Below are positions 13,553-13,852 of a stretch of DNA of 15,416 nt, piece by piece (the first letter of the stretch is position 1; every line of letters begins with the position of its first letter). A program made the position numbers and the translations under genes. This stretch comes from a virus (taxonomy: Duplodnaviria; Heunggongvirae; Uroviricota; Caudoviricetes). The stretch is from IMG/VR virus record IMGVR_UViG_2778261167_000001. One strand, 5' to 3'. Below the pieces are notes generated by a model. The model was given only the letters and a program-made list of their open reading frames with translations. It was not told the DNA's origin and did no database searches.

Positions 13553-13852
13553 TTACTCAGTAACAACTGTGCCTTCCGGTAATTCCATACCGGCAAATAC
13601 CGGACAACCAGGATGACGATCATCTTCTGTTGCTTCCAGCATTGACTCACCAAACCACTCCGTCGTGGCGCGACTATCAGCAGCTTTGTAGTGGAGTAAG
13701 TACTGGTTTTCGCCATCCGCATACTGCGCGCGGGCTTTAACCTCACCCCATTCATCACTGATGCGCATCTCCACCAGTTGAGACAACTCAAACTTAAACG
13801 GAGCAGCATCAGCACCAATTACAATCGGTTTGTTTTCTGTTTTTTCCATCAT
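13553..13852 (-). CDS. Hypothetical strongly acidic cytoplasmic protein (about 100 aa)
   Basis: ATG 13852/13849 with AGGAG RBS. About 20 Asp+Glu against 9 Lys+Arg, with no hydrophobic segment. Last ORF before cos. No family recognised. Confidence 0.5.
   Translation of the reverse strand: MMEKTENKPIVIGADAAPFKFELSQLVEMRISDEWGEVKARAQYADGENQYLLHYKAADSRATTEWFGESMLEATEDDRHPGCPVFAGMELPEGTVVTE

Follow-up and report, generated by a model that had tools for sequence, protein, structure and literature searches.

A small acidic protein encoded next to cos in a lambda-like prophage belongs to a widespread phage family with a predicted beta-barrel fold resembling HspQ

The small protein HspQ is both a substrate and an activator of the Lon protease as well as a ClpS-binding anti-adaptor, the acetylation state of its residue K96 governs its recognition and degradation by Lon, and the same fold is found again in the plant adaptor ClpF (PMC6719616). 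Bacteriophages in turn encode proteins that target Lon, among them T7 gp4.5 and T4 PinA, which act partly against protease-dependent toxin-antitoxin defence (PMC10286901). Strong negative charge in a small soluble protein is also the hallmark of Ocr (T7 gp0.3) and ArdA, which are helical DNA-shaped dimers made immediate-early. The gene that concerns us here encodes a protein that is likewise small, soluble and very acidic, but it occupies a late position and its product is a predicted beta-barrel, whose closest solved relative is HspQ of E. coli, Yersinia and Salmonella (YccV; PDB 5YCQ, Pfam PF08755), the product of a chromosomal heat-shock gene rather than of a phage late region. The gene lies in a stretch of 15,416 nucleotides (IMG/VR record IMGVR_UViG_2778261167_000001, Caudoviricetes), hereafter the window, which is taken up entirely by the late region of a lambda-like prophage, with the minus strand as the coding strand.

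The late order starts with a GH108 endolysin (14712-15257), several small ORFs, the acidic gene and a terS of the DUF1441 type (12758-13252, minus strand; Pfam PF07278, E 5.6e-42; PHROG 141), which is the first gene past cos; it goes on with a gpA-type terL, a lambda-type portal, a ClpP-capsid fusion and a cement protein, and ends with the tail proteins Z, U, tube, G, T and the tape measure, the acidic gene sharing its strand with the lysis and structural genes. The fusion is a 750-aa ORF at 6937-9189 on the minus strand that combines a domain of a ClpP-like prohead protease with one of a major capsid protein; when counted from its first possible start, it shares about 250 nt with the end of the portal ORF (8942-10447). 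The cos cleavage region (13422-13444, minus strand) reads ...GCCACG / GGGCGGGAGCGTCGCGG, which resembles the lambda cohesive end. The start (GGGCGGGAGCGTCGCGGAAAAAGG...) and the end (...GGTGGGGTGGCCTGCCACG) of the phage cdtI record meet at 13438/13439 on the minus strand of the window; the records of mEp460_4F5, cdtI and Tritos have their ends at approximately 13438-13443. The cut at cos therefore falls about 114 nt after the stop codon of the acidic gene and, with terS next at 13252, the acidic gene is the last one before cos, in agreement with a preliminary description of this locus.

The coding sequence occupies 13553-13852 on the minus strand, which the preliminary description had left unstated, and comprises 99 codons plus stop from the ATG at 13852; its product, MMEKTENKPIVIGADAAPFKFELSQLVEMRISDEWGEVKARAQYADGENQYLLHYKAADSRATTEWFGESMLEATEDDRHPGCPVFAGMELPEGTVVTE, starts with MMEKTENK and ends with TVVTE. 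A Shine-Dalgarno sequence, AGGAG, read directly at 13860-13856 on the same strand, is separated by 3 nt from the first ATG (13852) and by 6 nt from the second (13849), and because of this spacing and of the N-terminus of most homologues, which is MEKTENK, the start at 13849 is favoured and the true product is probably one of 98 aa. The span of the ORF given previously is confirmed. The composition put forward at that time (about one residue in five Asp or Glu, net charge about -11, neither transmembrane nor signal sequence) is borne out: we count 6 Asp and 14 Glu (20.2%) against 5 Lys and 4 Arg, for a net charge of -11, a pI of 4.48 and a GRAVY of -0.51, and the maximum Kyte-Doolittle hydropathy in 19-residue windows is 0.91, so that the protein has neither a membrane segment nor a signal peptide. 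A membrane or secreted protein is ruled out by this absence of a hydrophobic segment. The acidic fraction is the highest among the window ORFs of at least 60 aa, and in a rough background of 492 phage ORFs, obtained from unrelated viral contigs by crude ORF calling, the same acidic fraction is reached by 0.2% and an equally negative charge density by 0.6%. The charge is shared among the three parts of the protein, namely an N-terminal tail of low confidence (residues 1-18, charge -1), a conserved beta-barrel core (residues 19-73, charge -5) and an acidic C-terminal extension that bears an H-P-G-C-P motif (residues 74-99, charge -5).

L33 of the Shiga-toxin 2e phage phiP27 shows 95% identity to the acidic protein; it is encoded at the same site after the lysis genes, and its annotated start lies 16 codons further upstream. 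The profile of PHROG 1935 aligns over its positions 1-98 to residues 2-99 of the acidic protein (E 6.6e-59), and PHROG 8618 is matched as well (E 3.3e-24). L33 and the two PHROGs constitute the same family, the PHROGs carrying no functional annotation, and membership of PHROG 1935 or kinship with L33 thus names the protein and leaves its role unexplained. Close homologues fall into 81 clusters, which come from E. coli, Shigella, Salmonella and Yersinia and are without exception labelled hypothetical, and an exhaustive profile search (E <= 0.001, clustered at 50% identity) returned 663 family representatives; the family is large and mostly phage-borne, and the term orphan used in the preliminary description has to be abandoned. 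The DNA is present in 164 of 5,426 complete E. coli genomes, at up to five places per genome, and the gene is also carried by non-mobilizable plasmids of 48 kb in E. coli whose genes look phage-like, e.g. in ATCC 25922. From 80 viral contigs we obtained 42 intact coding sequences that differ from one another; closely related pairs, 794 in all, give a dN/dS of approximately 0.15, which shows that this is a genuine protein under purifying selection. Models of Pfam, NCBIfam and PADLOC gave no match (Pfam and PADLOC to E <= 1), an exact-sequence look-up of the window protein returned no record, and a literature search of limited extent brought up no characterisation of phiP27 L33 or of a phage YccV.

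Alignment of the family delimits a common core of 55 residues, FKFxLxQxVxIxxSGExGxVxGRAEYxxxxNxYLxxYKAADGRAxExWWxESxL, in which F19, S32, E34, G36, R41, Y51, Y55 and W66 are nearly invariant. Many members consist of this core alone (57-70 aa), while others are duplicated in tandem or fused to Lcl_C/DUF1566, Cys-rich or repeat modules. The enterobacterial long form, to which the window protein belongs, has in addition a C-terminal extension that is itself conserved (..EDDRHPGCPVFAxxxLPEG..). Proteins of the long form are consistently acidic, with net charges of -6 to -14, whereas in the family at large the core is only slightly so (median net charge -2). The H-P-G-C-P motif itself corresponds to codons 80-84 (window 13598-13612); the long form hardly varies at Pro81, Gly82 and Cys83, the one conserved Cys, has either His or Tyr at position 80 and in most cases retains Pro84, giving Cys-Pro followed by a hydrophobic residue. 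In a frequent variant (P0003, P0025, P0036 and P0038, the first of which represents 260 sequences) the C-terminus is longer by about 33 residues (ELQPGEVFVMTDIIDGKPQYSRIEMN..ARLIRE), which are absent from the window protein.

Structure prediction proved dependent on the alignment supplied. AlphaFold run with 21 close homologues gave a pLDDT of 46.6, which is unusable; run with 72 diverse family sequences it gave a pLDDT of 87.6, a pTM of 0.71 and six strands (25-29, 35-42, 50-56, 62-68, 72-74 and 80-84), only the first 18 residues being poorly defined. The model confidently predicts a small SH3/Tudor-like beta-barrel of the HspQ type, and the C-terminal extension is predicted to form part of the fold. 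In a Foldseek search the top match was HspQ (5YCQ) at E 1.7e-3, about 30-fold better than the 5.8e-2 of the next. The Tudor, chromo-barrel, Agenet, PWWP and KOW barrels had lower structural scores and larger rmsd than HspQ, and the Pfam Tudor-knot model matched 4 of 145 family members weakly (best E 1.3e-4); these barrel families are eukaryotic chromatin readers or ribosome and transcription factors. A fold search of the viral structures in BFVD yielded uncharacterised small barrels only. Two family profiles searched against PDB sequences gave chance matches only, the best being Hha (E 1.5) and superoxide dismutase (E 1.7), and these were discarded.

The resemblance to HspQ extends beyond the overall shape. 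Both proteins are small, soluble and single-domain, with 105 aa, a net charge of -10 and a pI of 4.53 for HspQ against 99 aa, -11 and 4.48 for the acidic protein; they have the same order of strands from F19 to P84 and end in a shared E-x-x-L ... D-x-H-P-x-x-P. We compared their profiles with hhalign after checking the HspQ sequence against 5YCQ, bearing in mind that the HspQ alignment is shallow, all of its sequences being at least 77% identical. Against this shallow profile the alignment of 72 family sequences (A3) scored a probability of 86% and E 5e-6 over 77 columns, and the result varies with the query, the probability falling to 24% with the core-only alignment (A7) and to 1% with the long-form one (A1); all three nevertheless give a single register, which pairs F19, G36, Y51, E69 and L72 and the common D-x-H-P-x-x-P. 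The family-HspQ score of 32.6 compares with a mean of 11.2 (sd 2.5, maximum 21.5) for 200 column shuffles. In the alignment the H-P of H-P-G-C-P falls on the invariant H81-P82 of HspQ.

The two proteins also differ. HspQ has an insertion of about 15 residues between its third and fourth strands that is absent from the acidic protein, and its residues 86-105, K96 among them, have no counterpart there, the alignment stopping at HspQ residue 85 and the window protein going on with the unrelated VFAGMELPEGTVVTE. The Pfam model YccV-like (PF08755), which all HspQ homologues carry, matched none of 145 family representatives at E <= 10 and did not match the window protein at E <= 1. On the strength of the model the fold resemblance to HspQ is solid, and the profile comparisons make remote homology plausible but unproven; the acidic protein should not be filed as a member of the YccV-like family. 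The existence of the gene was already known, as a hypothetical protein in databases. The definition and spread of the core domain, the confident fold and the resemblance to HspQ appear to be new, a limited literature search having found no paper on any of the three.

Taken together, the overall best explanation in our analysis, to which we assign a probability of roughly 0.3, is that the protein is a stand-alone acidic barrel module that binds a basic partner, with Lon or ClpS-ClpAP as the candidate target. It would be expressed late, from the Q-dependent late transcript, as the order of the genes and a simple promoter scan suggest: a simple consensus scan of the coding strand between 13250 and 14750 found no sigma-70-like promoter. 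It would then work alone as a protein-binding module, the negatively charged barrel binding and titrating a basic host or phage partner, for which the host AAA+ proteolysis, by analogy with HspQ, would provide the most specific candidate. The likeness to T7 gp4.5 and T4 PinA would be one of proposed target class only, and we claim no structural relation to them. None of the evidence at hand demands an unusual mechanism.

The notion of a module that works alone accords with the variety of its genomic surroundings, which bear at the same time on an alternative that we consider rather unlikely, namely that the barrel is an accessory of the passage from lysis to packaging that would bind terminase, cos DNA or the head-completion machinery, or else tune lysis timing, in a manner helpful to the phage and non-essential. 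Its main attraction is that a site beside packaging genes recurs in unrelated phage types. The long form always follows a lysis cassette and precedes packaging genes whatever the types of the modules, the endolysin being of the M15 or GH108 type and the terminase region having a terS of the DUF1441 or Nu1 type or, in phiP27, being of the HK97 type with an HNH endonuclease, so that the distribution check proposed in the preliminary description places the gene after lysis genes and before cos or terminase beside three terminase types. In Edwardsiella the gene stands directly behind the spanin pair, core-only relatives in P2-like phages lie between terS (gpM) and gpL, and in the 48-kb E. coli plasmids and the Yersinia phage vB_YpM_44 the gene is upstream of ParB-like genes. 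Among 79 diverse viral loci the commonest named neighbours within two genes were spanins (11), gpA-type terminase (4), AntA (4) and lysozymes (3). In two settings unrelated to each other, Stenotrophomonas prophages (L016-L019) on the one hand and the E. coli 48-kb plasmid and vB_YpM_44 (L185 and L004) on the other, the gene directly downstream encodes a protein with a ParB/Srx N-terminal domain.

Against a packaging helper speak the core-only relatives found in early or replication regions, such as gp32 of Burkholderia phage Bcep176 and those of Stenotrophomonas prophages, and the occurrence of RdgC, RecT, DNA polymerase and Thy1 among the neighbours at the 79 loci. No conserved partner gene emerged from these loci, where the largest neighbour cluster covers 8 of the 79, and there is therefore no obligate partner and only a partial preference for the junction between lysis and packaging. 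This junction is moreover a known hot spot for inserted accessory genes, and position alone is for that reason weak evidence. Phages cdtI and phi458, which are otherwise related and both have deposited complete genomes, lack the gene, of which just the last 21 codons and the hairpin that follows are left, and it is therefore, by the sequence evidence, a dispensable accessory gene; an essential role in packaging is ruled out on the same ground. In these two phages (cdtI orf60, L023:2393-2755; phi458 Orf23, L024) the 3' end of an ORF that we read as a KilA-N-like remnant overlaps the last 21 codons in another frame (PGCPVFAGMKLPEGAVVTE), and this overlap is a recombination scar that marks a mosaic joint inside the acidic gene.

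That hairpin is a long inverted repeat with 22-nt arms and a 3-nt loop (13507-13553, minus strand), found by an inverted-repeat search, which begins at the last base of the stop codon of the acidic gene and would fold as RNA with -30.4 kcal/mol (z -6.4). It is not a canonical intrinsic terminator, as no U-run follows it, and since it is conserved in cdtI despite the loss of most of the gene it may be a component of the cos-proximal block (the 3' end of an RNA, or an element of the packaging site) and not of the gene. Scanning 13000-14400 against Rfam gave no meaningful match.

Less probable still is a gene for lysogenic conversion or superinfection exclusion, expressed from the prophage to the benefit of the host and acting perhaps with the ORF directly upstream, which is transferred along with it. 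This ORF (13938-14120, minus strand; PHROG 7528, E 3.7e-38) encodes a lipoprotein-like product of 60 aa with a signal peptide and a lipobox, LLVGC. The segment 13503-14121, which contains the acidic gene, the hairpin and the 60-aa ORF, is 96% identical to phiP27 with unrelated flanks, and the two ORFs therefore move as one block, whose G+C content is 48% against 52.8% for the window; the same gene pair is present in E. coli prophages (L005-L010). Mobility of this kind, the presence of as many as five matches in a single E. coli genome and a site in the region where lambda carries bor would all suit a conversion gene. The lack of a sigma-70 promoter match on the coding strand does not, nor does the lack of a PADLOC defence-family match at E <= 1 for either the acidic protein or the 60-aa ORF, and a terminator-like hairpin upstream, inside the lipoprotein ORF, would in a lysogen block read-through. 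A moron in the strict sense is an inserted gene with its own promoter and terminator, and as no promoter of its own was found we withhold the label; the suggestion in the preliminary description of a conserved lambdoid moron is essentially right in so far as it means a conserved lambdoid accessory gene at a recurrent position.

The upstream hairpin just mentioned (11 pairs, then UUUUUUAUU; window 14046-14071, minus strand; RNA z -4.5) sits in the part of ORF 13938-14120 that codes for the signal peptide, and it could stop non-antiterminated transcripts ahead of the acidic gene. The 60-aa ORF has a mature part of 29 residues with two Cys and no Pro, and occupies the position of an outer-membrane spanin while being unlike a typical one. 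Between it and the endolysin are two paralogous ORFs on the minus strand, 14389-14592 and 14122-14295, of 67 and 57 aa, which have similar C-terminal hydrophobic segments and match PHROGs 1115, 4493 and 3246; no canonical inner-membrane spanin was seen in the lysis region of the window.

A more daring version of the link to proteolysis holds that the protein is a stripped-down phage mimic of HspQ that acts on Lon or ClpS and reprogrammes host proteolysis late in infection, a proposal that we regard as doubtful. It starts from the structural comparison, the tail by which Lon recognises HspQ being missing and the acidic barrel kept, so that the mimic would sit on Lon or ClpS undegraded. Were this so, phage proteins might be stabilised, or abortive infection through protease-triggered toxin-antitoxin systems blocked, and the 663 family representatives would amount to a widespread new class of phage protease modulators.

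The least probable reading is the one ventured in the preliminary description, an anti-restriction or anti-defence protein of the Ocr/ArdA kind, which would present a DNA-like negative surface to a restriction enzyme or a DNA-binding defence protein and thereby block it. Anti-restriction genes are normally expressed first, and in lambda the cos-proximal genome end concerned is packaged last and injected first. Although a charge of this strength (net -11, pI 4.5), unusual among phage ORFs, is of the Ocr/ArdA type and is kept in the long form, and although the gene lies at the genome end that enters the host first in lambda, a DNA mimic is disfavoured by the compact SH3/Tudor-like barrel predicted in place of an elongated helical DNA-like rod, by the absence of Ocr and ArdA from the top 50-60 fold-search matches listed and of any Pfam or PADLOC match, these two proteins included, by the mild acidity of the core in the wider family, and by the place of the gene, last in the late block with no promoter match upstream. 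The protein may still act against defence by another route, for instance through interference with host proteases.

For the present, the acidic protein of this prophage is one more conserved hypothetical phage protein. Even so, what had been an acidic orphan is now a defined domain family with a confident predicted fold and clear boundaries whose gene is dispensable, and the defined domain and the dispensability make a knock-out or a pull-down straightforward. If the link to HspQ were functional, a common phage family would control the main regulatory proteases of the host, and this would bear on lysogeny decisions, on toxin-antitoxin defence and, because the Stx2e phage phiP27 carries the gene, on the biology of Shiga-toxin phages.
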